In this document: piece after piece, positions 17,017 to 40,479 of the stretch | Layout: the number at the start of each line of letters is the position of its first letter | How positions within the stretch are numbered: position 1 is the stretch's first letter | DNA from: Planctomycetales bacterium | Lineage (GTDB): Bacteria; Planctomycetota; Planctomycetia; Pirellulales; Pirellulaceae | Assembly (NCBI GenBank): GCA_020426955.1 | Contig: JAGQOZ010000001.1 | Coordinates: 1-49,910 of the forward strand | Length of the DNA: 49,910 bases | Direction of reading: 5' to 3' | Program-made: the position numbers and the translations under genes | Notes under the pieces: model-generated | What the model was told of the DNA's origin: nothing | Database searches by the model: none | What the model saw: only the letters and a program-made list of their open reading frames with translations

Positions 17017-17036
17017 GACGAACCGGGAGACTGACC

Positions 17037-17474: not shown

Positions 17475-17507
17475 TGACCGTCCCATTTCACCAACGGGCA
17501 AGCTCAG

Positions 17508-19751: not shown

Positions 19752-19764
19752 TTTGAAGAGACTT

Positions 19765-19780: not shown

Positions 19781-19909
19781 AGGATCGGAAAACTCTACCG
19801 ATAAGTGCTTATCGTTAACGATGCCAACGAGTTGCGTTCATTTTTTTCGAGTTGGCAAGACAAGTTGATCACTTGGAATAGGCGTTAGACGCCACGCGAG
19901 AAGTTACGT

Positions 19910-21031
19910 ATGGCTGACAAAGATAAAATGTCCATCCAGGACATTCTGGCCGCCTGCCGTGGGGACGGTGGCGGAACACCAGACGCTGCAAAAGCGAACG
20001 ATGAATCATCCGGCGCAGAAGCGGCGAAGCCCGCAGCGACACCGGCAAAACCTGCGGGTCAAGCAAAGCCTGCGGGTCAAATGAGTGTCGAAGATATTCT
20101 GGCGGCGGCACGAGGGGGTTCTTCTGCGGCATCCGGATCTGGTCAAGAGGCCGGTACCAGCAAGCCGGTAGCGTCGAACAAAAGTCCGGGCGAAATGAGC
20201 GTTTCGGATATTTTGGCGGCGGCACGAGGTGACGGCGGTGGTGCTGCGAAGCCAGCTTCTTCATCTGCCAAGAAGGCCGCGCCGAAACCAGCTGCTGCGG
20301 CAGGCGACAAAACAGCGCCTAAAGCCAGCGCGCCGGTTCGAACTGGCCCCATGGATACGTCCAGTATTCTGGCGGCTGCCAGGGGTGGTGCGAAGCCGGG
20401 ACCTATTTCCAAGGCGGAAGCGGCAGCCCAGGGTAAACCGACCGCGCCAAAGTTGACCGCGCCACCGATGCCGCAAAAACCTGCTTACGCGTCCCCGAAA
20501 GCAAAACCTTCTAAGGCCACAGAAACTCGCCGAGGATTCTTTTCGGTTTTCCTCGGTTCGTTCTTAGCTGTTGGCTTCACGACGCTCTCGCTTACCAATC
20601 TCTTGTGGGTATTGGGATTAGCTCGCTTTTTCTTCCCCAATATTTTGATCGAACCGCCCAGTCGGTTCAAAGTTGGGTTTCCCAGCGATTTTCCGCCAGG
20701 TGCTGTGGCAACCAAATTCAAAGCCCAGTTTGGCGTCTGGGTAACCAATGTTGAATGGGACGGACAGCGACAGCTTGTTGCACTCAAGACCGTATGTACG
20801 CATCTAGGCTGCACGCCCAACTGGCTGGAGGCAGAACAAAAATTCAAATGCCCGTGCCACGGAAGTGGTTTTTACATTGACGGAGTCAACTTTGAAGGCC
20901 CGGCACCTCGTCCGTTGGAACGCTATGCCATTCGAGTTGCCGACGATGGGCAGTTGGAGATCGATAAAAGCAAGACGTTCCAGCAGGAGCTAGGACAGTG
21001 GTCCGATACGGCTTGCTACGTACCGGTGTAG
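19910..21031 (+). CDS. Rieske [2Fe-2S] subunit of a cytochrome bc/b6f-type complex, with a ~205-aa N-terminal low-complexity repeat extension
   Basis: Cluster-binding boxes CTHLGCTPNW and CPCHGSGF. Tat motif plus anchor ETRRGFFSVFLGSFLAVGFTTL. The N-terminus has four copies of the MS-x-x-DILAAARG module in an Ala/Pro/Lys-rich context. Confidence 0.9.
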   Translation: MADKDKMSIQDILAACRGDGGGTPDAAKANDESSGAEAAKPAATPAKPAGQAKPAGQMSVEDILAAARGGSSAASGSGQEAGTSKPVASNKSPGEMSVSDILAAARGDGGGAAKPASSSAKKAAPKPAAAAGDKTAPKASAPVRTGPMDTSSILAAARGGAKPGPISKAEAAAQGKPTAPKLTAPPMPQKPAYASPKAKPSKATETRRGFFSVFLGSFLAVGFTTLSLTNLLWVLGLARFFFPNILIEPPSRFKVGFPSDFPPGAVATKFKAQFGVWVTNVEWDGQRQLVALKTVCTHLGCTPNWLEAEQKFKCPCHGSGFYIDGVNFEGPAPRPLERYAIRVADDGQLEIDKSKTFQQELGQWSDTACYVPV

Positions 21032-21087
21032 GTCGACCGTTCGACCGATTCGTTTTTGATCGTTCATAAAGCTACAGAGTTTTTAAG

Positions 21088-21864
21088 ATGGCTTCACTTG
21101 GCGAAGTAATTCGTAATTCGCAGATTTGGAAGAGTATTTTTCGGCACCCAATGCCGGTGGATCGAAGAAATCGAATTGTGGTCATGTTGACCAACTTCTT
21201 CCTTCACCTTCATCCGGTGTCGATCAAAAAGCAGGGAATTGCGCTTAGTTACACTTGGTGCATGGGCGGGGTAACGTTTTTCTTGTTTCTGGTGGAAACG
21301 GTGACTGGCGTGCTGCTGATGTTCTATTATCGTCCAACTTTGGAATGGGCGTACACGGACATTCTGGCGTTACGAGACGTCACGTCGTTGGGCATTCTGC
21401 GCGAAATTCACCGCTGGGGCGCCCATGCAATGGTGATTGCGGTTTGGCTGCACATGTATCGAGTCTTCCTGACGGGCAGTTATAAGCCACCTCGTGAATT
21501 CAATTGGGTCATTGGTGTTGTCCTCCTGCTTTTGACGCTATTGCTCTCGTTTACCGGTTATTTGCTCCCCTGGGACCAACTGGCCATCTGGGCCATCACC
21601 GTCGGTTCCAATATGGCACGAGCAACCCCGTTTCTCGGTTCCGAAGGTCCTGGTGCCGCACTTCTGAATGTGGGCGGTATCGATATGATCACCATGGGAT
21701 CGGACGCTCGCTACGGACTGTTAGCCGCTCGATTTGTGGGCGAAGAAACGCTCAACCGATTCTACATCCTGCATTGCATCGCTATTCCGTTGGTGGTTGC
21801 GTTGCTGCTTGCCATCCATTTTTGGCGAGTGCGTAAGGATGGTGGTATTAGCGGTCCCCTGTAA
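21088..21864 (+). CDS. cytochrome b, N-terminal (b6-like, 4-TM, haem-binding) subunit
   Basis: [60 protein letters not shown] has the conserved His pairs and the PWDQ motif of cytochrome b/b6. Confidence 0.9.
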
Positions 21865-21934
21865 TTGTTTTTTCCGAAACTCATTCACTTGGTCCGACGA
21901 GCGGATTCAGTAGGTTCTCAAAGAAGAGACTCTT

Positions 21935-23281
21935 ATGCACGGAAACGAAGATCAATTTCTCCGAGGAATATCGGGCTTCCTGGGCAGCTACTTTCTTTGT
22001 CTGGCGGCCATGAATGCCATTGCTGCTTTTTATTGCTGGAAGCGATTGGGAAAGTCCAATCTGAGCCTACTTTGGTTGGCATTCTCGGGCGTATTCTTGA
22101 TCATGGCGCCGTTCGGATACGCGGGTGCCAATGGCACGCCTCAGTTGATGAAGTGGATTGGTGTACCGGAAACATTCCGTAACTTCGTCGATTCGCAACT
22201 GGCCAATGCCGTGGCCTATACGTTGGGAACGACCATTACGTTGATCGTGCTGTTTGTCTTTCGTAAGTTCTTTGTCAAACCTGTGATCGCGTGGTTGATG
22301 CTGAACGGAGCCTTGGCGTTCATGGGAATGTCGATGATCGATCCGGAATTCGCATCGATTGTTGGCAAGCCTGACAACGTTCCTATTGTGATGATGGTGT
22401 TCCTACTGGGATTCTTTACTTGGCTGGCAACGTACCGCGCTGTTCAGAACGATGAACGGAAGGAACAAGGCCTGGAATCGCTGGAAGCAGTGGACAACGA
22501 AAAGATTTTGGTGTGGCCTGACTTGGTATACACCGAAATGATTTGCATGGTAGCACTGACTGCCTTCTTGATTCTCTGGGCTATTGGATTGCAGGCCCCA
22601 TTGGAGGAACCGGGCAGTTTGGTCAAGACACCTAACCCATCGAAAGCGCCGTGGTATTTCCTTGGGCTACAGGAGATGTTGGTGTACTTCGATCCGTGGA
22701 TGGCAGGTGTGGTTCTACCGAGCTTAGTTGTTGCTGGGTTGATGGCCATTCCGTTTTTGGATTTCAACAAGGCCGGAAATGGTTATTACACCATTAACGA
22801 ACGAAAGTTCGCGTACCTGATTTTTCAATTTGGCTTTCTCGAATTGTGGGTGACGTTGATCATCCTGGGGACGTTTCTACGTGGCCCCAACTGGAATTTT
22901 TTCGGCCCTTACGAAATCTGGGACGTCCATAAAGTTGAAGCACAAAACAACGTCGACCTGTCTCGCATGTTTTGGGAAGGTTTGCTGCAACGCCAAATGC
23001 CCATGCCATCGACCGAAGCATCGACGCTCTCCCAACTGGGAACGATCCTCGTTCGCGAATCGCCTGGCATTCTTTTGACCATCGCCTATTTTGTGCTGAC
23101 CCCTCCATTATTAGCCATGACGTTACTGAAACGGTTTTATGTCCGAATGGGCTTGATTCGTTTCATGGTGATGTCCAATCTGTTGTTGTTTATGGTCTTG
23201 CTTCCCATCAAGATGGTTTTGCGTTGGACCATTACGCTCAAATACATCATTAGTATCCCTGAATATTTCCTGAATCTTTAG
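21935..23281 (+). CDS. cytochrome b C-terminal / b6f subunit-IV-like protein, expanded to ~10 TM helices
   Basis: PNPSKAPWYFLGLQEMLVYF matches the PEWYF-type Qo-site motif of subunit IV and the cytochrome b C-terminus. It is flanked by about 5 extra N-terminal and 2-3 extra C-terminal hydrophobic helices. Confidence 0.8.
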   Translation: MHGNEDQFLRGISGFLGSYFLCLAAMNAIAAFYCWKRLGKSNLSLLWLAFSGVFLIMAPFGYAGANGTPQLMKWIGVPETFRNFVDSQLANAVAYTLGTTITLIVLFVFRKFFVKPVIAWLMLNGALAFMGMSMIDPEFASIVGKPDNVPIVMMVFLLGFFTWLATYRAVQNDERKEQGLESLEAVDNEKILVWPDLVYTEMICMVALTAFLILWAIGLQAPLEEPGSLVKTPNPSKAPWYFLGLQEMLVYFDPWMAGVVLPSLVVAGLMAIPFLDFNKAGNGYYTINERKFAYLIFQFGFLELWVTLIILGTFLRGPNWNFFGPYEIWDVHKVEAQNNVDLSRMFWEGLLQRQMPMPSTEASTLSQLGTILVRESPGILLTIAYFVLTPPLLAMTLLKRFYVRMGLIRFMVMSNLLLFMVLLPIKMVLRWTITLKYIISIPEYFLNL

Positions 23282-23334
23282 TCGGTGATTTCGCGTCTGT
23301 TAGCATTAAGGATGTGAGTCGGAGGCTTTATTAA

Positions 23335-26300
23335 ATGCCAGCTAGTGAAAAAACTTGGCGAGATCAACGTACATTGCACGTTGTGTTCGGTTGCACGGGT
23401 GTCGTGCTCTTGATTGCGACGATTTGGATGTTCGCAAAGGATCATTCTCGTGAATGGAAAACCTACCAACGTTTGAATCGAGAAATCGAGACTCGTTTGA
23501 CGTCGTGGCGACTGGAGGCTGACGAATCCGACGACAAACGGTTGCAGTTGTCTGAACTAGACGACAAGCTTCAACTAGCCCTGGCGACGCCGCCTGCGCA
23601 GCCTCTGTTCTCTGAGTTCGTTGCGGCCTTAGACGAATCAGACGCAGACCTGAAATCCGCATTGGAGAGTCAATACCAAGAACTTAAGGCGGCCAGCGGT
23701 GCCGATTCCGCCGAAGGCAAGCCCAGCGAACAAGCATTGAAATTGCGCAAGGATTTGTTCAATGAAATGGATCGCGTAGTCAGCAATGCTAAGTTTCGCG
23801 AGGCTCGGGCGCTTGGCCTGCGAAAATTCAAATCCGCTGATTACGATGAGCAACGCGCCAACTATGATTTGGGCGTTCGCGACGCCGTGATGGACGCCGA
23901 ACTGAACCAACTGATGGAAAAGGCATTCCAGGAACGCAATGACCGTGACGAATTGACGTTGGAGTACCAGGACGCCACCGCCTATCGCGTGAAACTGCAG
24001 GGCTTGTTGCGTTCGATGCAGGATGATGAATCGGCCGTTCGAAAGCAGATTGACGATGTCCAATTAGAATACAACCGACTGAAAACATCGCTGGAAGAAC
24101 GTGACGCGACGTACTTCACTAGCACCTTCCCTTTCTTGGGAAAACGAGTTTTAGAATTGCCGATTTTCGACGCATTCAATTCGCCATTGAAGGTCCAAAA
24201 CTTATGGACGGATGGCCTGACTCAGCCAATGGGAAGTTTTCGTCAGGTACGGCGATTTGATCGCTGTACTACTTGTCATCAGAACGTGGAAAAAACAGCA
24301 CCTGGTTCCGCTGTCAAGCCCGCCTACGAACATCAGCATATTACACGCTTGACGTTGAAAACCCCGCAGTCCGCGCCTGCGGGTGATGCAACTCTGGTCG
24401 ACGTCTACGGCCTTCAATTCGCTGCTCGCGGCTTGGTCGAATTCGATGACGTAACCGTTAAGAACGTACTGCCAGAATCACTGGCAGCGACGGCTCGAGC
24501 ACAATCGGCTGATCAATCGAATGGCATCCAGGTTGGAGATATCATTGTTCGCATTTCTGGGAACGAGATCTTCTCGGAAGAACAGGCCACGCGATTGCTT
24601 TTGACGGATTTTGAACCCGGGCAACCGTTGACAGTTGAGGTGCTGCGAGGCTTGCCGCATCCTTTTGCCAGCCATCCTCGGTTGGACCTTTTCGTCGGTT
24701 CGCTTAGCCCTCATAAGCTGTCTGTTTTTGGCTGCACTGTCTGCCACGAAGGACAAGGCTCGGCTACCGACTTCAAATGGGTTTCGCATTCACCCAGCAA
24801 TCCTCGTCAAGAAGAACAATGGATCGATAAATACGGTTGGTTTAACAACCATCACTGGATCTACCCCATGTTTCCGGCTCGTTTTGCGGAAAGCGCTTGT
24901 TTGAAGTGTCACCACAGCGTGGTTGAATTGCGTCCCAGTGAACGATTCCCCGAAGCGCCGGCACCCAAGCTAATGGCAGGCTATGACCTCATTACGTCGT
25001 ACGGTTGCTTCGGCTGCCATGAAATCAATGGCTACAATGGTCCCGCGTCCATTGGCCCCGACATGCGACTGGAGCCCAATTATTTTGCTGCGGCTGCGGC
25101 GGTAAAAACGGATCCTGCTTTCGCCGCTTTGGATCAGGAAAAACAGGATTGGATCCAAACGCTGGTTCAACACCCTGAACAGACTTCGGTCCGACGTAAG
25201 CTTCGTGAATTCATCAAGACGGATGCAGCTTCGGACACACCGTTGTTGACGACCACCTCTCACAAGATGGCGTCCGTTCTGGATGACGTCGAGTCGCCTG
25301 GGACGATGCGAAAGGTCGGGCCTAGCCTGCGTCACATTGGGGCTAAAAATGGCAAGACGTTTTTATACGACTGGATTCGCGACCCATCGCATTTCCGTCC
25401 ATCGACCAAAATGCCTCGTTTTTTCGGCCACTGGGATCACTTGAACGAAGAAGAACGCGCTGTTTCAGAACGTTTCGAACCGATCGAAATTCTAGGGACC
25501 GTTCAGTTCCTGTTAACAATGAGTCAATCGTATGAAGCGGAAACACCGTCGGTCGAAATCAGCGACGATCCCGAGATGATTGAACGAGGGAAGCTGGCGT
25601 TTGAGACGCGAGGTTGCTTGGCGTGCCATCAGCACGACGACTTTCCGTATGCTCAGGCCACCAAAGCACCAGACCTTACGGGCATCGGCAACAAGTTTGC
25701 CATGGATGACAATCCAGACGCAAAGTTGTGGCTGTACAATTGGCTCAAAAATCCGTCTAACTATCACCCTAGAACCAGCATGCCCGACCTGATCTTGGAA
25801 CCTATCCAGGATACTGACGGAAACACGACCGATCCCGCAGCCGATATCGCGGCATATCTGCTTTCATCCACCACGGATTGGCAAGTTGCAGAAGCGACCG
25901 AAAAGGGGCTCAATGTTGACGAAGCGGCACTGAATGACTTGGTCTTAGAGCATCTTAAGTCCAAGATTTTCATTCGCGACGCTGAACAAGCAATCAGCAA
26001 TGGACGCATTCCAGATGAAGTGGCCGCAACGCTTTCTGGTGCGGAGCTGCAGTTGGTCGGTGACCAATTGGATACTCAGAAGAAGCTGATGTATATCGGC
26101 GAGAAGACTATTGGAAAATTCGGTTGCTATGCTTGCCATGACATTCCCGGCTTTGAAGATGCAAAACCGATTGGTGCGGCGCTCGCAGATTGGGGCCGCA
26201 AGGAACCGTCCAAAATTGCGTTCGAACATATTGTGGAATACCTCCATGAAGGACAGCATGGGCACGGTGCTCATGTGTCCGATGGCGAAGCAGATCACGA

Positions 26301-27840
26301 CGAAGAACATTCTGCGGAAGAACATTCCGATGCTGGCAACGTTCCCCCGGACGGCGAGTTTGACGAATCGTACTACGTTCAAAAACTTCAAGAGCACGAT
26401 CGAACTGGTTTTGTTTGGCAGAAACTTAAGGAGCCTCGTAGTTACGACTATCAAAAGGCCGAATTGAAAGATTCCTACAACGACCGTTTGCGAATGCCAC
26501 AGTTCCCGTTCGATCCAGAAGAACGAGAAGCGGTTGTGACGTTTGTATTGGGTTTGGTTGCCGATCCGCCAGCTCATCAATTCGTCTATCATCCCAATGA
26601 ACGGCAAGCGGCGATGATCGCGGGTAGCAAGGCCATTGAAAAATACAACTGTAAAGGTTGCCATCTCTTCGAATCTGAAAAGTGGGAATTGCAGTTTGAA
26701 AAAGGTGCTATTCCGCCTCAGTCCCCAGACTTGGCAACCATGTTTCCTTTCATGCAAGTTTCCGTGCCAAGTGCCGAGTTAAACGCGTCAGCAGAAGCCG
26801 ATTCGTTCACCAATTTGGTAACGGCTCATATCAAGGGCATGCCTAGATTAAACAACGATGGTAACTTTGCCGTGTTTGATTATGACGGCACGCCTTTATC
26901 GGAGCTGGATGAAGAGGATATTGCCGAAACCAATCCCGACGATTATTTATATCCGTTCGATATTTGGGAACCGAGTTTGATCGATGGAAGTGTCTTCCAG
27001 CCTGGCCTGTCACCACTAGAAATTCCGGCCCAGCAAATTGTCAATAAACGATCTTCCGTGGGAGGTGATTTGACGCATTGGCTGCGGCCTCGTGCGTTAG
27101 AGATTGAGCGAGAAAGGAATTCAGGTGCAGAAGCCGCTCAGGTCTGGGGTTGGCTGCCGCCGCCGCTGATCGGCGAAGGTAATAAGGTGCAAGCAGCTTG
27201 GTTGCACGACTTCCTGCTGGAGCCCTATGCCATTCGCCCCGGTGTGTTTATGCGAATGCCCAAATTCAACATGTCGTCCGACGAAGCAACCGCCATTGTC
27301 CACTACTTTGCAGCTCGAGATAACGCGAATTATCCTTACGAATTCGAGGAAGCGACCGATACGAATCGGTTGAATCGCTTGAACCAGGAATATGTTTCTG
27401 CCTCGGGTGAATCCGAAAACGCTGACAAATCGTCGAACGTTCGCTTCGAACACGCGATGAATATTGTCGTTGACAAGAACTACTGTGTAACTTGCCATTA
27501 CGTCGGGGATTTCGATCCGAAACGAGGTGACCGGTCGACTGGACCAAACCTTGCAGACGTCGAGAAGCGGCTTCGTCCCGATTACGTAAAACGTTGGGTT
27601 GCCAACCCGGCTCAGATATTGCCTTACACTCCAATGCCGGTGAATATTAAGTTTGACACCAACGCCGAAAACCTGGGCGGAGTAAGCCAAGATCTCTATC
27701 ATGGTACTAGCCTGGAGCAGTTGGATGCATTGGTCGATTTGCTGATGAATTTTAGTCAATACACGCAATCCAAGACTTCGATTTCGGATATGGTTCCGTC
27801 TACAGAAGCGAGCGAGAATCCGGACGGAGAATCCGAGTAA
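23335..27840 (+). CDS. membrane-anchored octahaem c-type cytochrome (1501 aa) with coiled-coil and PDZ-like regions
   Basis: GGAGG RBS. N-terminal TM VVFGCTGVVLLIATIWMF. Eight CxxCH motifs: CTTCH, CTVCH, CLKCH, CFGCH, CLACH, CYACH, CKGCH and CVTCH. PDZ-like stretch GIQVGDIIVRISGNEIFSEEQATRLLL...LTVEVLRG. Confidence 0.9.
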   Translation: MPASEKTWRDQRTLHVVFGCTGVVLLIATIWMFAKDHSREWKTYQRLNREIETRLTSWRLEADESDDKRLQLSELDDKLQLALATPPAQPLFSEFVAALDESDADLKSALESQYQELKAASGADSAEGKPSEQALKLRKDLFNEMDRVVSNAKFREARALGLRKFKSADYDEQRANYDLGVRDAVMDAELNQLMEKAFQERNDRDELTLEYQDATAYRVKLQGLLRSMQDDESAVRKQIDDVQLEYNRLKTSLEERDATYFTSTFPFLGKRVLELPIFDAFNSPLKVQNLWTDGLTQPMGSFRQVRRFDRCTTCHQNVEKTAPGSAVKPAYEHQHITRLTLKTPQSAPAGDATLVDVYGLQFAARGLVEFDDVTVKNVLPESLAATARAQSADQSNGIQVGDIIVRISGNEIFSEEQATRLLLTDFEPGQPLTVEVLRGLPHPFASHPRLDLFVGSLSPHKLSVFGCTVCHEGQGSATDFKWVSHSPSNPRQEEQWIDKYGWFNNHHWIYPMFPARFAESACLKCHHSVVELRPSERFPEAPAPKLMAGYDLITSYGCFGCHEINGYNGPASIGPDMRLEPNYFAAAAAVKTDPAFAALDQEKQDWIQTLVQHPEQTSVRRKLREFIKTDAASDTPLLTTTSHKMASVLDDVESPGTMRKVGPSLRHIGAKNGKTFLYDWIRDPSHFRPSTKMPRFFGHWDHLNEEERAVSERFEPIEILGTVQFLLTMSQSYEAETPSVEISDDPEMIERGKLAFETRGCLACHQHDDFPYAQATKAPDLTGIGNKFAMDDNPDAKLWLYNWLKNPSNYHPRTSMPDLILEPIQDTDGNTTDPAADIAAYLLSSTTDWQVAEATEKGLNVDEAALNDLVLEHLKSKIFIRDAEQAISNGRIPDEVAATLSGAELQLVGDQLDTQKKLMYIGEKTIGKFGCYACHDIPGFEDAKPIGAALADWGRKEPSKIAFEHIVEYLHEGQHGHGAHVSDGEADHDEEHSAEEHSDAGNVPPDGEFDESYYVQKLQEHDRTGFVWQKLKEPRSYDYQKAELKDSYNDRLRMPQFPFDPEEREAVVTFVLGLVADPPAHQFVYHPNERQAAMIAGSKAIEKYNCKGCHLFESEKWELQFEKGAIPPQSPDLATMFPFMQVSVPSAELNASAEADSFTNLVTAHIKGMPRLNNDGNFAVFDYDGTPLSELDEEDIAETNPDDYLYPFDIWEPSLIDGSVFQPGLSPLEIPAQQIVNKRSSVGGDLTHWLRPRALEIERERNSGAEAAQVWGWLPPPLIGEGNKVQAAWLHDFLLEPYAIRPGVFMRMPKFNMSSDEATAIVHYFAARDNANYPYEFEEATDTNRLNRLNQEYVSASGESENADKSSNVRFEHAMNIVVDKNYCVTCHYVGDFDPKRGDRSTGPNLADVEKRLRPDYVKRWVANPAQILPYTPMPVNIKFDTNAENLGGVSQDLYHGTSLEQLDALVDLLMNFSQYTQSKTSISDMVPSTEASENPDGESE

Positions 27841-27932
27841 CGTTACAATTACTAGTCCAGCCAAGACGCTGGGAATTTGATCACGGCGAAAGCACCGACG
27901 GACCCGTTGTTTTTGCCAGAGAGGAGAATTCG

Positions 27933-28703: not shown

Positions 28704-28734
28704 GCATTGATCCGTGAAACCAGGAGCCCGTTTG

Positions 28735-29619: not shown

Positions 29620-29638
29620 TTTAGGCGAATCAAATCCA

Positions 29639-30874: not shown

Positions 30875-30922
30875 CTGGAATTGGCCACCTCAGCGTATTC
30901 GTGATCAGTATCGAGGAAAACT

Positions 30923-31768: not shown

Positions 31769-31771
31769 ACA

Positions 31772-33565: not shown

Positions 33566-33574
33566 AGCCCATAG

Positions 33575-34591
33575 ATGTCCAACCGTAGAACGAGTAACGC
33601 TGTAGCCTCCGTATGGACTCGCCGTCTGGCGATCGGCTTGGCCTGCGCTACGTTTCCTTTGATTTGGGTGGGGGGGATGGTAACTACCTATGACGCGGGA
33701 ATGGCGGTACCAGACTGGCCGTCTACGTATGGTTACAATTTATTCTTGTATCCTTGGTCCACTTGGTGGAGTGGTCCATTCGACTTATTTATTGAGCACG
33801 GGCATCGTCTATTGGGAGCAGCCGTGGGCATGATTGCGATTGCTGCTGCGATTTCCGCATTCGTGAATCATGATTCCCGTCTGATTAAAACGTGTGCCAT
33901 CGGCTGTTTGATTGCAGTGATCGCACAGGGTGGACTGGGCGGGCTTCGAGTTGTTTTGAACGACACCACGGTGGCTCGGTTGCACAGTTGTACGGGACAG
34001 CTGTTTTTCTGCGGAACGGTGGGCCTGGTGGCCGTAACTTCGAATTGGTGGACTGCCAATCCTTCACGTGAAGAATTGGTGTCCAGAAGTCCGCTGACCG
34101 GCCTTTTCGGTCTAACGATGTGCATGATGTATCTACAATTTGTGCTTGGTTCGTTCGTTCGTCACATTGACCACTCGACAACTCCCGGCCAGTTTCAGCT
34201 CATCGCGTACGCTCACGTTTTGTTGGCGATGGCAATTGTCCTTCGCGTGACCTGGGTCTTTCTCTGTGGAATGAAGTCCACACAAGCTTGGGCGAAATAT
34301 GCTTCTTCCGCTTTACTGGCGTTGACGTTAGTACAAATCGGACTGGGTCTTGCTACCTGGACCGTTAACTACGGCTGGCCCACGTTCTTGCCGGAATACG
34401 CTGGATTCGCAGGATTTCTGGTGCGAGCCCAGAGTTTGGCAAAAGGTATAGTCGTAACCGGTCATGTTGCCACGGGGTCACTTTTGGTGGCAACCAGTTT
34501 CTGGAGCTGGCTACGTTCATACCATTGTGTCGCAGACGAAACGTCTGCCATCAGCGTGTCAATCAAACGATCAACGGGGGCAGTAGCTTGA
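33575..34591 (+). CDS. ctaA: haem A synthase (COX15/CtaA family)
   Basis: MAVPDWPSTYGYNLFLYPW, IEHGHRLLG and later His-containing helices (HVLLAM, TGHVATG). About 8 TM segments. Confidence 0.85.
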   Translation: MSNRRTSNAVASVWTRRLAIGLACATFPLIWVGGMVTTYDAGMAVPDWPSTYGYNLFLYPWSTWWSGPFDLFIEHGHRLLGAAVGMIAIAAAISAFVNHDSRLIKTCAIGCLIAVIAQGGLGGLRVVLNDTTVARLHSCTGQLFFCGTVGLVAVTSNWWTANPSREELVSRSPLTGLFGLTMCMMYLQFVLGSFVRHIDHSTTPGQFQLIAYAHVLLAMAIVLRVTWVFLCGMKSTQAWAKYASSALLALTLVQIGLGLATWTVNYGWPTFLPEYAGFAGFLVRAQSLAKGIVVTGHVATGSLLVATSFWSWLRSYHCVADETSAISVSIKRSTGAVA

Positions 34592-34602
34592 GCACTTCGT
34601 TG

Positions 34603-35505
34603 ATGTCTGTTGACCAGGAAGCCACCGTCACGAGCTCGCGGATGGCAGACTATGTGGAGCTGACCAAGCCTAAGATTTTAGTGCTGGTGTTAGTGACCGT
34701 TAGTCTCGCCACAGTCATCGGTGCTGGTTCGAACCTGGTGCTCTGGACTTGGCTGCATGCGTTGATTGGAACGACATTGGTCGCGTCGAGTGCCAGTATG
34801 CTAAACCAATTGTTCGAAGTCAGTACTGACGCTCGAATGCCACGTACCAGCAAGCGTCCACTGCCGATGGGGCGTTTGATGCGATGGGAAGTGCTTGGTT
34901 TAGCAACACTGACGGTTTGCATTGGTATGCCGTATTTGTGGTTTAATGTTGGCTTGGCCGCTGCGTTTTGGGCGTTTGCCACCTGGAGCCTGTACGCGTT
35001 TGTCTACACTCCGGCAAAGACCAGAACGTCCTGGAACACGGCCATTGGTGCCATTCCAGGAGCGTTGCCTGTACTGATCGGCTGGTCTGCGGCGGGACGA
35101 ACACTGGATTTCACCGGGGCAATGGTCTTTGCCATCATGTTTTGCTGGCAGTTTCCTCATTTCATGGCCATCGCATGGCTATACCGACAACATTACCAAG
35201 CGGCCGATGTGAAAATGTTGACCGTTACCGATCCGACAGGAAAGTCTGCAGGACGCCTGGCAATCGGAATGGCGGTAGCAACATTACTGGCGGCGGTCGC
35301 TGCGGGCGGCACAATTACCAGTTCCATCGGACTATTCGGATACGTCGCGGTGTCAATGGCATTAGGCGTATACCAGCTTTACCTGTCCATTCAATTTTCG
35401 AAGAATCTAAACGAAGGTGCGGCTCGTTCGCTGCTTCGATTTTCACTTGTGTATTTGCCACTGCAACTTGCCAGTTTGACTTTGGCCAGTGTGATAGTGA
35501 TCTAG
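34603..35505 (+). CDS. ctaB: protohaem IX farnesyltransferase (haem O synthase)
   Basis: YVELTKPKILVLVLVT, the UbiA-type motifs NQLFEVSTDARMPRTSKRPLP, and FCWQFPHFMAIAWLYRQHY. ATG 34603 lies 11 nt after the ctaA stop. Confidence 0.9.
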   Translation: MSVDQEATVTSSRMADYVELTKPKILVLVLVTVSLATVIGAGSNLVLWTWLHALIGTTLVASSASMLNQLFEVSTDARMPRTSKRPLPMGRLMRWEVLGLATLTVCIGMPYLWFNVGLAAAFWAFATWSLYAFVYTPAKTRTSWNTAIGAIPGALPVLIGWSAAGRTLDFTGAMVFAIMFCWQFPHFMAIAWLYRQHYQAADVKMLTVTDPTGKSAGRLAIGMAVATLLAAVAAGGTITSSIGLFGYVAVSMALGVYQLYLSIQFSKNLNEGAARSLLRFSLVYLPLQLASLTLASVIVI

Positions 35506-35526
35506 TCAAAGGAATTGAAAACCAAA

Positions 35527-36717
35527 ATGTCTCACGATACCGACCAACACGATCATGGGCATGTGCATTTGGAATATCAGCCTGCATTGCCGCTACCCAA
35601 CGGCAAGCTCTGCCTTTGGTTATTTCTTTCCACGGAAATCATGTTTTTTGCCGGACTAATCGGAACGTATATCGTCTTGCGTTTTGGTGCTCCTGCTTGG
35701 CCCGCTCCGGCTGACGTGCATTTGAGCGAACCGATTGGTGCGTTCAACACGTTTGTGCTGATTTGCTCCAGCGTTTCCATTGTCCTTTGCCTGGAAGCCG
35801 CCAAAGCGAACAAAACGGGACAAGCCAAACTAATGCTGTGGATCACGTTTGCTTTGGGAAGTTTGTTCCTGGGAGTAAAAGCGTATGAGTACAGCGCCAA
35901 GTTTGCTCATGGCATCTATCCGAAGCGGCCTCGTAGTTTGCTTTATGAAAAAGCGGATGTCACCTATGCGGCTGCGGTCCGTAAAACATTAATGGACCGA
36001 CGGATTGCGTTGGAGAACGAAAAGTCACATCTCCAGGAGAACGAACAGGACATTCCTGCGCATTTGGACGAAGAGATTAGCCAAGCTTCCATGTTGGAAT
36101 CGGGGCTTGCCACTTGGACCGAACGCAGAGTAGCGCAAGCCGATTCACCTGCCATGCAACAGCAGTTATTGGACGGCCTTGCCAATTCCATCTACGCGGG
36201 TCATGGCGGCGGTCCCAGTTCGGAAGTGATTGATCAGGAACTTGCGGAGTTGGCGACGCAAGAATCTGAAGTCGAACAACAGTTGCGGGATCTGTCAAAG
36301 GAGCAGTTGGAGCTGGAAGAGAAGACAGCAGCGGGTGAAGATCATTCCGAGCGATTGGCCGAGATTACTTCGCTCAGCACTTCGTTGCCCAATGACAAGG
36401 CGCTGATTGCGGATCGGGTTGGGACTTTGGAGTTACTCAAGAATGCCGAGCACGGACTGAACGAGTATTTTCATGAAGAGGGAAGTTCGCTCATTCTTCC
36501 GATGCGAATTCCGGGTGGAAACATGTGGGCCAGTACCTACTTTTTGTTGACTGGTTTCCACGCAATCCACGTGATTGTCGGGTTGATTCTGTTTGGTTTG
36601 ATCTTGGGAAAAACACTGGATAAGTCGAAGGCCAACTTTATCGAAAACACGGGCCTTTACTGGCACTTTGTGGACCTCGTCTGGATTTTCCTGTTTCCGT
36701 TGTTGTACTTGTTCTAA
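35527..36717 (+). CDS. ctaE: cytochrome c oxidase subunit III with a ~200-aa soluble insertion
   Basis: [28 protein letters not shown] and then, after the insertion, [23 protein letters not shown] and [20 protein letters not shown] are subunit III hallmarks. His-rich N-terminus [14 protein letters not shown]. Confidence 0.85.
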
Positions 36718-36759
36718 TTTGAACTGAATCGAAACCAATCCTTTTATGGGACTTCAATA

Positions 36760-37182
36760 ATGTCAGATCATCACGCACACGACGACCATTCCCACGGTGG
36801 CACCGGCACTTACCTGACCGTGTTCGGGTGCCTTGTGGCTTTAACCGCAACGTCTGTCATTCTCGCTCAATCAAGCTTGATGGACAGCAGTCCCGGTGTG
36901 GCTTGGGCTGGCATGATGGCCGTGTCGTGTGGCAAAGCCATGCTGGTGATCATGTTCTTCATGCATTTGAAATGGGAAGCCAACTGGAAATACGTGTTGA
37001 CCATTCCTGCCATGATGATGTCAGTGTTCTTGGTTTGCATGTTGGTTCCCGATGTTGGGCGACGACAACGCATGTATTCGGAGGAACGCTGGACCTTTGC
37101 TGCTCAACCGGCACCAGAACATCACGGCGCGGACGGCGATACGCATTCCGGCCACAGTTCGGACGCCGATCATTCCCATTAA
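36760..37182 (+). CDS. ctaF: cytochrome c oxidase subunit IV (prokaryotic COX4_pro-type) with His/Asp-rich termini
   Basis: YLTVFGCLVALTATSVILA and KAMLVIMFFMHLKWE are the family core, with 3 TMs. Termini are MSDHHAHDDHSHGG and PEHHGADGDTHSGHSSDADHSH. Confidence 0.7.
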   Translation: MSDHHAHDDHSHGGTGTYLTVFGCLVALTATSVILAQSSLMDSSPGVAWAGMMAVSCGKAMLVIMFFMHLKWEANWKYVLTIPAMMMSVFLVCMLVPDVGRRQRMYSEERWTFAAQPAPEHHGADGDTHSGHSSDADHSH

Positions 37183-37202
37183 TTCGCGAGTTTACTGATC
37201 CA

Positions 37203-38123
37203 ATGTCTGTCATGGTGAATGTTGATTCACTTTCACACCGCTATGGTGAACGACAGGCATTGTCCAATTTGACTCTGTCGGTTCCGGACGGTGAAATTTT
37301 TGCGGTCCTAGGCCCCAACGGCGGCGGCAAAACCACGTTTTTTCGGCTGCTTTCTACATTGATGCCCATCCAGTCGGGGCGAATTCAGGTTGCCAACCTG
37401 GACGTGACTGCGCAAACACATCTGGTTCGCCAGCGAATTGGTGTCGTGTTTCAGTCGCCCAGCTTGGACAAAAAGCTTACCGTTTTGGAAAACCTGCGTC
37501 ATCAAGCGTCGCTGTATGGAATTCGAGGCCAATTACTGCGTCACCGAGAAGCCGAATTAATGCGAAGTCTGGGCATTACGGATCGAGCCAACGAGCGAAC
37601 TGAAAAACTCTCCGGCGGACTTCGCCGTCGCGTCGAATTGGCCAAGGGATTGCTGCATCATCCGCAGTTGCTGATTCTGGACGAACCGAGTACTGGATTG
37701 GATCCCGGCGTACGAGCTGATTTGTGGAACTACTTGGGAAAACTCCGGAACGAAGCCGGTGTCACTATCCTGTTCACGACACATCTTTTGGAAGAGGCGG
37801 AACGAGCGGATCGGATCGCCATTTTTCACCAAGGATGCCTTGTTGCGAATGATTCACCGGAGAATCTGCGAGCTTCCGTTGGCGGAGATTCCATTCAAAT
37901 TGAATGCACCGAACCGCAACAACTGGGCGAGTGTATTGCCGCCCAATTTGGTCTTCAGCCGCAAGTTATTGATTCGACCATTCGCTTGGAAGTTCCCAAT
38001 GGCCATCGCTTGGTTAGTGAGCTGATGCAACAATTTGGCAAACGAATCCATGCCATTCGTCTTGGAAAACCTTCGTTGGAAGATGTTTTTATTTCCAAGA
38101 CGGGACACCATTTTTGGGAATAA
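37203..38123 (+). CDS. ABC transporter ATP-binding protein (ABC-2 / NosF/CcmA-like subfamily)
   Basis: Walker A GPNGGGKTT, signature LSGGLRRR, Walker B LLILDEPSTGLD, H-loop TTHLLEE. ATG 37203. The longer ORF from 36828 overlaps ctaF out of frame. Confidence 0.9.
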   Translation: MSVMVNVDSLSHRYGERQALSNLTLSVPDGEIFAVLGPNGGGKTTFFRLLSTLMPIQSGRIQVANLDVTAQTHLVRQRIGVVFQSPSLDKKLTVLENLRHQASLYGIRGQLLRHREAELMRSLGITDRANERTEKLSGGLRRRVELAKGLLHHPQLLILDEPSTGLDPGVRADLWNYLGKLRNEAGVTILFTTHLLEEAERADRIAIFHQGCLVANDSPENLRASVGGDSIQIECTEPQQLGECIAAQFGLQPQVIDSTIRLEVPNGHRLVSELMQQFGKRIHAIRLGKPSLEDVFISKTGHHFWE

Positions 38124-38142
38124 CAAAAGACGCGGAACTGTC

Positions 38143-38970
38143 ATGTCTTCATCCTACCCATCCGGTCAACTTGCTATCGCCAGTCCATGGCGTGTTGCCT
38201 TTCAGTTGGCAAAACGCGAGATTGTTCGATTCTTTCGGCAAAAAAACCGTGTTGTCGGCGCAGTCGGACAGCCCGTCTTGTTTTGGCTGCTGTTTGGAAC
38301 TGGATTGAATCAGAGTTTTCAAATGCAAGGACAGTCGTTTAGCGAATATTATGTGCCTGGCACCATTGTACTGATCCTGTTGTTCACCGCTATTTTCTCC
38401 ACCATTTCCATTATCGAAGATCGCAATGAAGGCTTCTTGCAATCGGTCTTGGTAGCGCCAATTCCAACGTGGTCAATGGTCTTGGGAAAGGTGCTGGGCG
38501 GCACGCTGATTGCATTAATCCAAGCAATCCTGTTTCTTGCGCTTTCGCTGTTGCTGGTTTCCCAGATTTCCGTCGTGGGCATCGCCCTTTCGATTGTGTA
38601 CATGACCTTGATTGCTATCGGCTTGACATGCTTGGGTTTTGTTCTGGCTTGGAAACTAGATTCCACTCAGGGGTTTCACGCCATCATGAGCGTGCTGCTA
38701 ATGCCTATGTGGCTGCTATCCGGCGCATTTTTTCCGATTCCCGACGTGCAGACTCAGCTTACGATGGGCGAAAAGATCTTGCGAATCGTCATGCTATTGA
38801 ATCCCACCACATACGCGGTGGCTGGACTACGACGTGTATTCATCGAACAATCCAATGCATGGATGCCCAGTGTCACGCTTTGCTGGACCGTGACAATTTT
38901 ATTCGGGTCAATCATGTTTGCAGCGGCAACCGCAATTGCTCGAACTCGCACCGCAGGAGATTTAAAATGA
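38143..38970 (+). CDS. ABC-2 type transporter permease
   Basis: ATG 38143. About 6 TM helices. REIVRFFRQKNRVVGAVGQPVLFWLLFG and IIEDRNEGFLQSVLVAP are typical ABC-2 permease blocks. Confidence 0.8.
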   Translation: MSSSYPSGQLAIASPWRVAFQLAKREIVRFFRQKNRVVGAVGQPVLFWLLFGTGLNQSFQMQGQSFSEYYVPGTIVLILLFTAIFSTISIIEDRNEGFLQSVLVAPIPTWSMVLGKVLGGTLIALIQAILFLALSLLLVSQISVVGIALSIVYMTLIAIGLTCLGFVLAWKLDSTQGFHAIMSVLLMPMWLLSGAFFPIPDVQTQLTMGEKILRIVMLLNPTTYAVAGLRRVFIEQSNAWMPSVTLCWTVTILFGSIMFAAATAIARTRTAGDLK

Positions 38971-39692
38971 AGAGTTTCCAATTCTGGTTGACGGCCGCAT
39001 GTGGTTTGACGTTTTTACTCTTATCCGGTTGCAATCGTTCGCCCATCACAGAAGGGGGCAGCATATCCGTTCCTGACGATGAATACGTCCCGCCAGAGGG
39101 GATCCTGACGGAGTTCCAACTGACCGATCAGCAAGGAAAGCCCTTTGATTCCAAATCCTTGCAGGGGCAAGTTTGGATTGGCAGTGTCTTCTTTTCAAAA
39201 TGCCCGACGTCTTGTTTTCAACAAAACGTTCGTGTGGGCAACGTGCAACGGCAGTTTCAAGACCAAGGCCTGAAAGTCATTAGCGTTACGTGCGACCCCA
39301 AGACGGATACGCCCGGTGCACTTTGGGAATACGCAAAGAAATTCGATGCCAACCCGGACGTTTGGTACTTCTTGACCGATCAACATTTCGAATATCTCAA
39401 GAAGGTAGCCAATGATATTCTTCGGCTACCGATGCAAGAATACACGCATTCTGATCAAGTCGTTTTGTTTGACCGAAAAGGAGAAATCTACGGTACGTAT
39501 GCCGTACTGCAGCCAAAACAGGCGCTGCAGCTAAAAAAGGATATCGCCAAACTACTTGGTCAAAGCGAAGCCGAACCGGACGTAGATTCGGAATTTGAAG
39601 GTTTCAATGCCGAGGACGCTGGGCCGGCGGTCGAAACGGACGAATCCGAATCGGGTGACGCCGCTGATGCCAATAGCGATACAGGAGCGTAA
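38967..39692 (+). CDS. SCO1/SenC-family copper chaperone (thioredoxin fold) lipoprotein with an acidic tail
   Basis: ATGA overlap with the permease stop. Lipobox LLLSGC. The C-x3-C motif FFSKCPTSC and downstream His (EYTHSDQVVLFD) match SCO Cu ligands. The C-terminal tail is D/E-rich. Confidence 0.8.
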   Translation: MKSFQFWLTAACGLTFLLLSGCNRSPITEGGSISVPDDEYVPPEGILTEFQLTDQQGKPFDSKSLQGQVWIGSVFFSKCPTSCFQQNVRVGNVQRQFQDQGLKVISVTCDPKTDTPGALWEYAKKFDANPDVWYFLTDQHFEYLKKVANDILRLPMQEYTHSDQVVLFDRKGEIYGTYAVLQPKQALQLKKDIAKLLGQSEAEPDVDSEFEGFNAEDAGPAVETDESESGDAADANSDTGA

Positions 39693-39695
39693 TTC

Positions 39696-40142
39696 GTGTC
39701 CGAAGAATTCGTTCGCCAATTCCCGCATGTCAACGCGTCTCTAAACCTGTTATCAACCATCCTGTTGATCGTAGGTTACCGCCAAATTCGGCGAGGCAAC
39801 GAACGTCAACACAAACAGACGATGCTGGCTTGCTTTGGCGTGTCAGTGCTGTTTTTAGTCTGTTACCTGATCTATCATTCATACCATCTGACCACAAAAT
39901 TTCCGGACTATCCTCCGGCTGTTGTCCGATACATCTACTTGGGAATCCTAGCTACGCATGTCATCTTGGCAGCGGCAGTTCCGTTCCTAGCCGTGGCCAC
40001 CATCTACCTGGGCCTAAAAGATAAACGGACGGCGCATCGGCGAGTTGCCAAGTTCACTTTCCCAATCTGGCTGTATGTTTCCATCACCGGAGTTGTCGTC
40101 TATTTAATGCTGTATCAACTGTTTCCCGTTCAAGGCGGATAG
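39696..40142 (+). CDS. DUF420 membrane protein (CtaM-like oxidase accessory factor)
   Basis: FPHVNASLNLLSTILLIVGYRQIRRGNERQHKQTMLACFGVSVLFLVCYLIYH fits the DUF420 pattern. 4 TMs. GTG start 3 nt after the SCO stop. Confidence 0.75.
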   Translation: MSEEFVRQFPHVNASLNLLSTILLIVGYRQIRRGNERQHKQTMLACFGVSVLFLVCYLIYHSYHLTTKFPDYPPAVVRYIYLGILATHVILAAAVPFLAVATIYLGLKDKRTAHRRVAKFTFPIWLYVSITGVVVYLMLYQLFPVQGG

Positions 40143-40191
40143 CCTATACTTCATGGGTTGTCATTTTTTGCGCCAGAGAGTGAGATTGGAC

Positions 40192-40479
40192 ATGTTTGAT
40201 TGTCGCCCTGCCGTCCATCGCCAACTATTTTCAATCGTATTTGTCTTGGCGATTGCCTCGGGAGTATCCGCATGTCCTAATTGCAAGAATGCAATAGCGG
40301 AGAATGGCGGCAACTTGATCCAAGGATATTTCTGGAGCATTTGCTTCATGATGTCCATGCCGTTTATCATCCTTGGAAGCCTGAGCGGCTATTTTTACCT
40401 GCAGGTCTTGAAGGCTCGCAAAGACCCAGCGTCCACGTTCACGGTTTCCGTCAAAGCCGCTGAAAAGACGTCCGTTTAG
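40192..40479 (+). CDS. small (95 aa) membrane protein with an exposed CPNC (CxxC) motif
   Basis: MFDCRPAVHRQLFSIVFVLAIASGVSACPNCKNAIA is a signal/anchor followed immediately by CxxC. A second TM is FWSICFMMSMPFIILGSLSGYFYL. It is the last + strand gene of the cluster. Confidence 0.5.
   Translation: MFDCRPAVHRQLFSIVFVLAIASGVSACPNCKNAIAENGGNLIQGYFWSICFMMSMPFIILGSLSGYFYLQVLKARKDPASTFTVSVKAAEKTSV

Follow-up and report, generated by a model that had tools for sequence, protein, structure and literature searches.

A conserved planctomycete gene cluster that combines an APWY-type Rieske/cytochrome b complex, an octahaem cytochrome c, two cupredoxins and an A2-type haem-copper oxidase

We analysed a 49,910-nucleotide (nt) stretch of DNA from a Planctomycetales bacterium of the family Pirellulaceae (assembly GCA_020426955.1, contig JAGQOZ010000001.1, positions 1 to 49,910; hereafter the window), in which an earlier note had described a cluster of respiratory genes. 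As that note had reported, the open reading frame (ORF) listing contains 18 consecutive ORFs on the plus strand that together span positions 19910-40479. In order, these encode a Rieske protein, cytochrome b6, a protein resembling subunit IV of cytochrome b6f complexes (SU-IV-like), an octahaem cytochrome c, cupredoxin 1, cupredoxin 2, a dihaem cytochrome c, CtaC, CtaD, CtaA, CtaB, CtaE, CtaF, an ABC ATPase, an ABC-2 permease, SCO1, a DUF420 protein and a mini-protein. With the start codons chosen in the note, the junctions between them measure, in the same order, 56, 70, 53, 92, 31, 19, 48, 3, 9, 11, 21, 42, 20, 19, -4, 3 and 49 nt. Independent gene calls agree with these starts. NCBI annotates proteins of 372, 258, 448, 256, 294, 411, 281, 338, 306 and 275 amino acids in GCA_041399205.1, a Pirellulaceae metagenome-assembled genome (MAG) whose octahaem cytochrome is 93% identical, and four metagenome contigs carry the last three genes as SCO1, DUF420 and mini-protein calls of 241, 148 and 95 amino acids. 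Nearly every gene assignment is supported by family searches, cofactor motifs or a confident structure model; the identities given in the note held up in Pfam, NCBIfam and the cofactor motifs, and those of the cupredoxins in an AlphaFold2 model searched with Foldseek.

The first three genes carry the features of a split b6 ('green') type complex: Rieske boxes with a membrane anchor, two bis-histidine haem sites, a separate subunit IV and a CxGG motif. The Rieske 2Fe-2S subunit (19910..21031, 373 amino acids; Pfam Rieske, 36.9 bits) contains the boxes CTHLGC and CPCHGSGF, and both boxes occur in all 66 homologues. Its anchor consists of a twin-arginine motif, ETRRGFF, followed by one transmembrane (TM) helix at residues 210-228. 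Ahead of the twin-arginine motif lies a cytoplasmic N-terminal extension of ~205 residues (window 19910-20530), rich in Ala, Pro, Lys and Gly, in which a 12-residue motif, (M)S(V/I)x(D)ILAA(A/C)RG, is repeated four times. One to four copies of this motif are present in 57 of the 66 Planctomycete homologues, and the 204-residue Rieske protein of a related cluster in Candidatus Omnitrophica, described below, lacks the extension. The extension could be a docking site for a chaperone of twin-arginine translocation (Tat) or of Fe-S maturation.

The cytochrome b6-type subunit (21088..21864, 258 amino acids) matches Pfam Cytochrome_B with 137 bits; the NCBIfam models for ExtP (259 bits) and cytochrome b6 (182 bits) were both hit below their cut-offs. 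Its translation contains the haem ligand pairs H-x13-H and H-x14-H and a WCMGG motif, which is of the CxGG form and is shared by 70 of 74 homologues. CxGG is the signature of the covalently bound haem c_i/c_n of b6-type complexes (PMC5600118). The third gene (21935..23281) encodes an enlarged SU-IV-like protein of 448 amino acids with ~10 predicted TM helices, in which the subunit IV core occupies residues ~195-310. The match of this core to the C-terminal part of cytochrome b and to subunit IV appears weak but specific (Pfam Cytochrom_B_C, 23.8 bits; b6f subunit 4 in the PDB, E = 4e-4). Instead of the canonical PEWY or PDWY, the Qo motif of the SU-IV-like protein reads APWY, and APWYF is found in 77 of 78 homologues. 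Because of this motif, we assign the complex to what Kao and Hunte called the 'APWY clade'. Both the Rieske and the SU-IV-like proteins end in conserved hydrophobic C-termini, with the consensus DPASFVxV in the former (DTACYVPV in the window, 21008-21031) and IPEYFLNF/L in the latter (23258-23281).

The fourth gene encodes an octahaem c-type cytochrome of 1501 amino acids (23335..27840; Pfam Cytochrom_C). It begins with an N-terminal TM anchor, continues with a charged helical, coiled-coil-like segment of ~220 residues, and contains eight CxxCH motifs and a PDZ domain. The PDZ domain lies between haem motifs 1 and 2, at residues ~335-440 (window 24330-24650), where the Pfam PDZ score is below threshold. 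Exactly eight CxxCH motifs are present in all 74 intact homologues; seven of the motifs are invariant and one is nearly so. Searched with the protein's profile, the PDB sequences gave marginal matches only (E ~0.006) and no meaningful solved relative. An AlphaFold2 model of residues 296-1495 reached a mean confidence (pLDDT) of 72.5, and its Foldseek matches in the PDB were PDZ domains only (TMt up to 0.78), which left the protein without assignment to a known multihaem architecture. It is a matter of speculation that the Rieske or SU-IV-like C-termini might serve as ligands of this PDZ domain. We found no co-occurrence signal between them, and the SU-IV-like tail is equally conserved in Omnitrophica, whose octahaem cytochrome lacks the PDZ domain.

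Between the octahaem gene and the oxidase genes lie three genes for smaller carriers. Cupredoxin 1 (27933..28703, 256 amino acids) has a Sec signal peptide, a type-1 copper domain and a C-terminal beta-sandwich of ~75 residues. Cupredoxin 2 (28735..29619, 294 amino acids) is a lipoprotein with the lipobox FFAGC, a linker, and the same two domains; it is 33% identical to cupredoxin 1 and keeps every copper ligand. Neither protein matched a curated cupredoxin model in Pfam or NCBIfam; the C-terminal domain alone gave a below-threshold match to CarboxypepD_reg. The AlphaFold2 model of cupredoxin 1, built on 40 homologues, has a pLDDT of 94, and its N-terminal domain superposes on amicyanin (Foldseek TMt 0.69, root-mean-square deviation ~2 A, probability 1.0); plastocyanin and CuA domains were also matched. 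The ligands H131, C169, H172 and M175 are invariant in the 40 sequences, which include cupredoxin 2, and the copper loop has the C-x2-H-x2-M spacing of amicyanin. Across larger sets, the C..H..M loop is present in 66 of 66 homologues of cupredoxin 1 and 59 of 59 of cupredoxin 2. The modelled fold and the ligands thus confirm both as type-1 copper proteins of the amicyanin/plastocyanin class, with predicted copper binding. The label 'MauL-like', which the earlier note had given them, found no counterpart in NCBIfam, and the names 'methylamine utilization protein' or 'plastocyanin' occur only in some source records.

The two cupredoxins differ in how they are held. The Sec signal of cupredoxin 1 is of the plain cleavable kind and 63 of 66 homologues have no lipobox, which suggests that the protein is probably soluble in the periplasm. 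A lipobox is present in at least 32 of 59 homologues of cupredoxin 2. The dihaem cytochrome c (29639..30874, 411 amino acids) is likewise a lipoprotein, with the lipobox LVTGC (at least 36 of 55 homologues have one), and contains two class-I cytochrome c domains (Pfam Cytochrome_CBB3 twice, 85.6 bits). Two CxxCH motifs are present in 55 of 55 homologues, and the best PDB match is 6h5l_B (E = 1.3e-30). The number of cupredoxin genes varies among relatives: at locus L021, from a Planctomycetaceae MAG, three tandem cupredoxin paralogues occupy positions 15130-17543 between the octahaem and dihaem cytochrome genes, and locus L054 has two.

The next genes encode a complete oxidase together with the enzymes for its haem. 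CtaC, or oxidase subunit II (30923..31768, 281 amino acids; Pfam COX2_TM and COX2; NCBIfam CoxB, 141 bits), carries the CuA site CAELCGWGHYKM, and the motif C-x-E-x-C-x3-H-x2-M was found in 51 of 51 homologues. Family searches agreed with the earlier observation that this subunit has no fused cytochrome c domain. CtaD, or subunit I (31772..33565, 597 amino acids), scored 507 bits against Pfam COX1 and 616 bits against NCBIfam CtaD_CoxA, under the strict cut-off of 671; its closest relatives in the PDB are actinobacterial CtaD chains (E ~1e-126). Instead of GHPEV, it contains YSHPAV, as do all 48 homologues. YSHPAV, or more generally YSHPxV, in helix VI is what we take to be the signature of the A2 subtype in the classification of Pereira and Teixeira. 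Haem A synthase, CtaA (33575..34591, 338 amino acids; Pfam COX15-CtaA, 56.3 bits), and haem O synthase, CtaB (34603..35505, 300 amino acids; NCBIfam cyoE_ctaB, 220 bits against a cut-off of 210.3; Pfam UbiA), follow. The presence of ctaA and ctaB in the cluster implies that haem A would be the cofactor of the oxidase, as the designation 'aa3' supposes.

CtaE, or subunit III (35527..36717), is of the short type with five TM helices and resembles the actinobacterial CtaE/CyoC family in NCBIfam. Pfam COX3 matches it in two stretches, and between TM3 and TM4 lies an insertion of ~200 residues, charged and rich in Leu and Glu (residues ~135-330, window 35930-36520). By analogy with the topology of CyoC, the insertion is probably periplasmic. 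It measures 117-300 residues in 35 homologues, is present in all Planctomycete relatives, and is absent from the 193-residue Omnitrophica CtaE. We considered, as a hint of contact, whether its length co-varies with that of the N-terminal helical segment of the octahaem cytochrome, and rejected the candidate: the overall rho of 0.68 reflects a split between two clades, and within the variable clade rho is 0.06. The last oxidase subunit, CtaF or subunit IV (36760..37182, 140 amino acids), matches Pfam COX4_pro with 52.6 bits and NCBIfam caa3_sub_IV with 38.5 bits, above the cut-off.

The five genes downstream of ctaF had been described as a copper-delivery module, a description that is secure for only one of them. 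SCO1/SenC (38967..39692, 241 amino acids; Pfam SCO1-SenC, 62.5 bits) is a copper chaperone with a CPTSC motif. The two genes ahead of it form a generic, DrrAB-like ABC-2 exporter (37203..38970), made up of an ATPase (37203-38123) and a permease (38143-38970). The pair matches Pfam ABC_tran, DrrA1-3_C and ABC2_membrane and falls under the cut-offs of NCBIfam drrA and drrB. The DUF420 protein (39696..40142, 148 amino acids; Pfam DUF420, 150.7 bits) is a membrane protein of the CtaM type, which acts in oxidase assembly. In Firmicutes, CtaM is needed for active aa3 and caa3 oxidases at an unassigned late step (PMC9145763). The final gene (40192..40479) encodes a conserved mini-protein of 95 amino acids, which has two TM helices and, on the periplasmic side, an A-C-P-x-C-K motif; it falls in no family described so far and had no match in Pfam or NCBIfam. 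Its unnamed family has 795 representatives at E <= 1e-3. The gene always comes next after that for DUF420/CtaM, and both position and motif are kept at loci L081, L084, L086, L130 and L165, making the mini-protein a candidate for a new oxidase assembly or copper-handling factor.

To place the cluster among its relatives, we compared the 80 best octahaem loci, in which the octahaem cytochrome is 40-93% identical. The best relative, at 93% amino acid identity, is in a Pirellulaceae MAG, and the loci are labelled Pirellulaceae, Pirellulales, Planctomycetaceae, Planctomycetales, Planctomycetia, Blastopirellula, Anatilimnocola sp. NA78 and Planctomicrobium piriforme. The protein collection holds at least 882 octahaem homologues, and a relative is encoded in at least 566 species-representative genomes. 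As far as contig or flank reaches, 80 of 80 loci keep the genes from Rieske to CtaF in the same order on a single strand. The earlier note had suggested conservation of the order, and of the cupredoxin pair in particular, as a check; both are kept throughout, with the non-standard carriers between the bc-type and oxidase genes where the note had located them. Because the colinearity extends to all 80 related loci, the arrangement is not due to chance. An oxidase is always linked to the cluster, and no substrate dehydrogenase is.

The distal part of the cluster is more variable. The ABC pair directly follows ctaF at seven loci (L001, L014, L031, L047, L081, L086 and L092); in other relatives it is missing, and SCO1 comes directly after ctaF or ctaE. 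We looked for the distal genes in metagenomes with a CtaE profile, which returned mostly short contigs and unrelated oxidases, with L081, L086, L130 and a few others being informative. The full distal order of CtaF, ABC ATPase, permease, SCO1, DUF420 and mini-protein is present in the metagenome contigs L081 and L086. Four MAG contigs with this aerobic cluster (L033, L039, L069 and L070; octahaem identity 42-44%) are labelled Candidatus Kuenenia, two of them 'K. stuttgartiensis'. Either these labels are wrong, or the contigs come from anammox relatives with an aa3 oxidase cluster.

A trimmed version of the cluster occurs in another phylum, Candidatus Omnitrophica. It encodes a Rieske protein of 204 amino acids, cytochrome b6, an SU-IV-like protein with APWY, an octahaem cytochrome of ~950 amino acids, a cupredoxin, and a fusion of a cupredoxin to COX2. 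After the fusion come COX1, CtaA, CtaB and a COX3 of the short kind, next a small subunit and an epimerase-like gene, and finally SCO1, DUF420 and the mini-protein, each a few bases from its neighbour. The octahaem cytochrome has the same TM anchor, helical segment and eight haems, without the PDZ domain. Since the dihaem cytochrome c and the ABC pair are both absent from this version, we consider them accessory; at least one cupredoxin is present in every version of the cluster. Directly downstream on the same strand, the Omnitrophica contigs L165 and L166 carry a second module (18580-21485) with a multihaem cytochrome, a Rieske protein and an unsplit cytochrome b.

In the fusion protein, which is 494-497 amino acids long, the second cupredoxin and its beta-sandwich stand N-terminal to COX2, such that the type-1 copper loop CDVHPWM and the CuA motif CSQFCGLGHYRM are found in one chain. 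The full-length fusion is common to ~68 protein clusters, several of which are annotated as Omnitrophica subunit II. It is a copper analogue of the cytochrome c domain that is fused to subunit II in caa3 oxidases. As our strongest evidence on this point, the fusion argues that a cupredoxin of the second type would donate electrons directly to CuA.

The 18 genes also have, as judged from the DNA, the marks of a single operon, namely a common strand, short junctions, a lack of internal terminators and a conserved order, and may be co-transcribed. When every junction was scanned for terminator-like hairpins followed by T-runs in up to 80 relatives, none was conserved (at most 18% of loci). Within the window, terminator-like and promoter-like consensus matches were no more frequent than in shuffled sequence; weak terminator-like hairpins are found at 21031-21046, 27896-27909 and 40138-40162. 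In relatives, the median junction lengths are 8-84 nt, except for that between the octahaem and cupredoxin genes, to which we return below. Upstream, the cluster is separated from purD (18069-19409, minus strand) by a divergent intergenic region of 500 nt (19410..19909, plus strand). This region is likely to be the promoter region of the cluster; a single, weak sigma-70-like match at 19655-19683 is not above chance.

The cluster is flanked by unrelated minus-strand genes. Downstream of the mini-protein lie an S4-domain ORF (40514-40744) and the gene for a trypsin/dockerin protease (40737-43454), whose product is of the secreted type, 905 amino acids long, and joins trypsin and PPC pre-peptidase domains to dockerin repeats. 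Further upstream, at 12022-18023 on the plus strand, two TPR proteins (1022 and 351 amino acids), a MotA/ExbB-family protein and an ExbD-family protein make up a Ton/Tol-like energy-transducing module that has no relation to the cluster. Rfam and tRNA scans found nothing within the cluster; the sole match in the window is a tRNA-Thr (CGT) at 1734-1807 on the minus strand.

We think it reasonably probable that the cluster encodes a dedicated aerobic branch from menaquinol to O2, together with its assembly factors, in this Pirellulaceae planctomycete. The observations behind this reading are the gene content, the cofactor motifs, the cupredoxin fold, the conserved synteny and the cupredoxin-COX2 fusion; from these we infer a direction of electron flow and an order of carriers. 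Planctomycetes use menaquinone. Menaquinol would be oxidised at the APWY Qo site of the split b6-type Rieske/cytochrome b complex, which would carry haem c_i. The Rieske cluster would then reduce the membrane-anchored octahaem cytochrome, which would stand in for cytochrome c1/f and whose gene sits where c1/f genes normally do. From there, electrons could pass to cupredoxin 1 as a soluble periplasmic shuttle and on to the lipid-anchored cupredoxin 2, which would dock on subunit II. The lipid-anchored dihaem cytochrome c may be an accessory link, either in series or in parallel. From CuA, electrons would reach haem a and then the a3-CuB site of the A2-type oxidase CtaCDEF, where O2 would be reduced. 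As for assembly, CtaA and CtaB would make haem A and SCO1 would load CuA, CtaM and the CxxC mini-protein may act late, and the ABC-2 exporter may have some supporting role.

Several points count against this picture. The twelve redox centres from the Rieske cluster to CuA far exceed the needs of simple electron transfer, and the octahaem cytochrome may have another role, for instance as an electron hub or store. Kao and Hunte (PMC4122944) noted that no cytochrome b of the APWY type had been characterised, and they suggested that the clade may operate in reverse. The junction between the octahaem and cupredoxin genes, at 92 nt the longest in the window, has a median of 162 nt in relatives and exceeds 150 nt in 40 of 74; it could hold an internal promoter, and two transcription units are possible. 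Finally, Planctomycetes encode further bc complexes, alternative complex III and other oxidases (PMC6995999), and this cluster may not be the main respiratory branch.

One alternative is that the cluster encodes one stable, obligate supercomplex of complexes III and IV, in which the octahaem cytochrome, the cupredoxins and the dihaem cytochrome c are fixed subunits of a hard-wired haem/copper wire. We regard this strict form as rather unlikely. The membrane anchor of the octahaem cytochrome, the lipid anchors of cupredoxin 2 and the dihaem cytochrome c, and the fusion of a cupredoxin to COX2 in Omnitrophica all fit it, but cupredoxin 1, with its plain Sec signal, is probably free in the periplasm. 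The absence of a soluble carrier, a feature of the obligate actinobacterial supercomplex, is thus not shared here (63 of 66 homologues have no lipobox). Candidate tethers are conserved, among them the octahaem PDZ domain, the C-termini of the Rieske and SU-IV-like proteins, and the large periplasmic helical segments of the octahaem cytochrome and CtaE. However, Omnitrophica has neither the PDZ domain nor the CtaE insertion, which are therefore not essential to the system, and the lengths of the two helical segments do not co-vary within clades. The strict colinearity of the genes, and the fact that the closest solved relatives of CtaD come from the obligate actinobacterial supercomplex, also favour this alternative, although synteny alone is no proof of physical association. 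The anchors, the fusion, the PDZ domain and the conserved tails at the C-termini make a stable supercomplex plausible; soluble cupredoxin 1 speaks against a fully hard-wired path.

Another reading would be a supercomplex architecture not seen before, in which the APWY b6 complex is tethered to the A2 oxidase via the octahaem cytochrome, with the PDZ domain clamping the Rieske or SU-IV-like tail, a final contact to CuA made by blue-copper domains instead of cytochrome c, and a haem/copper wire of twelve centres. We put this forward tentatively, as somewhat doubtful. If true, it would have no structural relative in the PDB, and the role of the APWY clade would be settled as forward, O2-linked quinol oxidation.

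A third possibility is a branched or reverse chain like that of Acidithiobacillus ferrooxidans, in which electrons from a donor in the periplasm or outside the cell enter at the octahaem cytochrome or the cupredoxins and flow both downhill to the oxidase and uphill, through the APWY bc complex, into the quinone pool. The proposal that the APWY clade runs in reverse (PMC4122944) favours this arrangement, and the set of cupredoxin, dihaem cytochrome c, aa3 oxidase and bc complex resembles that of the iron oxidiser, with eight haems that could form an entry hub. Against it, no donor-oxidising enzyme or outer-membrane cytochrome is found in or beside the cluster at any examined locus, and because no electron-entry enzyme accompanies the cluster, we consider the reverse or branched chain highly unlikely. 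The Omnitrophica version, moreover, keeps a direct line from bc complex through octahaem cytochrome and cupredoxin to COX2, and the lineages in which the cluster is near-universal are known as aerobic chemo-organotrophs. That the locus holds several independent operons (bc, carriers, and oxidase with assembly genes) that are merely adjacent and share no dedicated functional link is more improbable still, and the synteny and the fusion exclude mere adjacency: the longer junction after the octahaem gene and the weak hairpins noted above would suit it, but these terminator-like sites are neither conserved nor above the level of shuffled sequence, order and strand are kept in 80 of 80 loci, which span two or more orders, and in a trimmed version found in another phylum, and the fusion of a cupredoxin to COX2 links the carrier genes with the oxidase.

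A dedicated menaquinol-to-O2 branch invites comparison with known respiratory systems, of which the actinobacterial bcc-aa3 supercomplex (QcrCAB with CtaCDEF; Mycobacterium, Corynebacterium) shares many features. Both have a menaquinol-oxidising Rieske/cytochrome b module, a multihaem cytochrome c in place of c1, and a CuA oxidase without a fused cytochrome c; qcr and cta genes are neighbours, the present CtaD is closest to the actinobacterial chains in the PDB, and CtaE is of the short actinobacterial/CyoC type. In contrast, cytochrome b is split here into b6 and subunit IV, with CxGG and with APWY rather than PDWY, and the c subunit, with eight haems rather than two, also has a PDZ domain and a segment resembling a coiled coil. 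The present cluster further adds two cupredoxins, a separate dihaem cytochrome c, an oxidase of the A2 type, and co-directional genes for haem A synthesis, SCO1 and CtaM.

Copper carriers have their own precedents. The SoxM terminal oxidase supercomplex of Sulfolobus acidocaldarius (soxEFGHIM) unites in one cluster a Rieske protein, a cytochrome b, sulfocyanin as the link, a CuA-bearing subunit II and a haem-copper subunit I. It differs in being archaeal and without c-type haems, in using caldariellaquinone, in having subunits I and III fused, and in lacking an octahaem cytochrome, a dihaem cytochrome c and assembly genes in the cluster. The cyanobacterial chain from b6f through plastocyanin or cytochrome c6 to an oxidase also uses a blue copper carrier, with a cytochrome c as a possible parallel carrier. 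Among precedents for copper joining a bc-type module to an oxidase, SoxM (cited in PMC3509893 and PMC4122944) is the clearest. The haloarchaeal Rieske/cytochrome b cluster with halocyanin likewise pairs a small blue copper carrier with a b6-type complex facing a haem-copper oxidase, as here (PMC3509893). The halocyanin and plastocyanin chains differ from the present system in that their carrier genes are not embedded between bc and oxidase genes, they have no multihaem subunit, and their cupredoxins lack the extra beta-sandwich.

The Firmicute system of b6c (QcrABC) and caa3 oxidase, with ctaA/ctaB and ctaCDEF(G/M), resembles the present one in its split b6 and subunit IV, its CxGG haem c_i, its use of menaquinol and its haem A genes beside the oxidase. 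SCO1 and CtaM (DUF420) are oxidase assembly factors in that system, as here (PMC9145763). In Bacillus, however, the qcr and cta loci are separate, subunit IV and subunit II each have a fused monohaem cytochrome c, and there are no cupredoxins and no octahaem cytochrome. The rus and petI genes of Acidithiobacillus ferrooxidans provide a similar set of parts (rusticyanin as its cupredoxin, plus a dihaem c4, an oxidase of the aa3 type and a bc complex), but there Fe(II) electrons enter via an outer-membrane cytochrome, the bc complex runs uphill, and the genes are in two separate operons; the present cluster has no such entry module. Within the same phylum, the anammox bacterium Kuenenia has the Rieske/cytochrome b complexes R/b-2 and R/b-3, with a b6-type cytochrome b containing CxGG and multihaem c subunits encoded in the operon (PMC5600118). 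The partners of those complexes are NAD(P) oxidoreductase or HAO-like subunits, and their link is with anaerobic metabolism; neither an O2 reductase nor cupredoxins go with them.

We therefore describe the present system as one of the Rieske/cytochrome b plus haem-copper oxidase kind and as a member of no named system; it is filed under none because the PEWY/PDWY motif and the absence of a soluble carrier do not hold for it. It differs from every system compared: a single conserved array of 18 genes brings together an APWY b6 complex, an octahaem cytochrome with a PDZ domain, two cupredoxins with an additional domain, a dihaem lipoprotein and an A2 oxidase.

These comparisons also bear on how the cluster had been interpreted in the earlier note. 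Its gene identities, the position of the carriers and the conserved order stood; the rarity of such clustering was overstated, and a role in copper delivery is secure for SCO1 alone. The statement that these functions reside in separate operons in most bacteria was too strong: Actinobacteria and the Sulfolobus soxM cluster have Rieske/cytochrome b genes next to oxidase genes, and oxidase genes often cluster with ctaA, ctaB, SCO1 or CtaM, as in the Bacillus cta clusters and in the ctaCDEFM cluster of B. firmus (PMC9145763). To call the path an unusual mixed haem/copper wire was likewise an overstatement, given sulfocyanin, halocyanin and plastocyanin. The view that the system lacks biochemical characterisation agrees with the searchable literature. 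A full-text search found no paper describing the cluster and no biochemical or structural work on it, although prior mention is possible. Planctomycete genome papers go no further than naming 'cytochrome bc1 complexes' and 'cytochrome c oxidases' (PMC6995999, PMC5673643), and evolutionary surveys mention Planctomycete cytochromes b but not this cluster (PMC5600118, PMC4122944, PMC3509893). For Thermogutta, one of them states that neither a cytochrome c nor a plastocyanin was found as a link between complexes III and IV (PMC5673643), which shows that cupredoxins of this type escape routine annotation.

In oceans, lakes and soils, planctomycetes of the orders Pirellulales and Planctomycetales are abundant as aerobic degraders, and their respiratory chains are so far known only as lists drawn from genome annotation. 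The cluster described here appears to be a conserved core of the Planctomycete respiratory chain, several parts of which have no characterised counterpart: an APWY bc complex, an eight-haem, PDZ-containing replacement of cytochrome c1, and cupredoxins that would replace cytochrome c as the donor to CuA. With it, hundreds of 'hypothetical proteins' in public genomes could be annotated better. It also offers a concrete target for cryo-electron microscopy and genetics, and a test of how far copper and haem carriers may be interchanged in electron transfer from complex III onward to complex IV.

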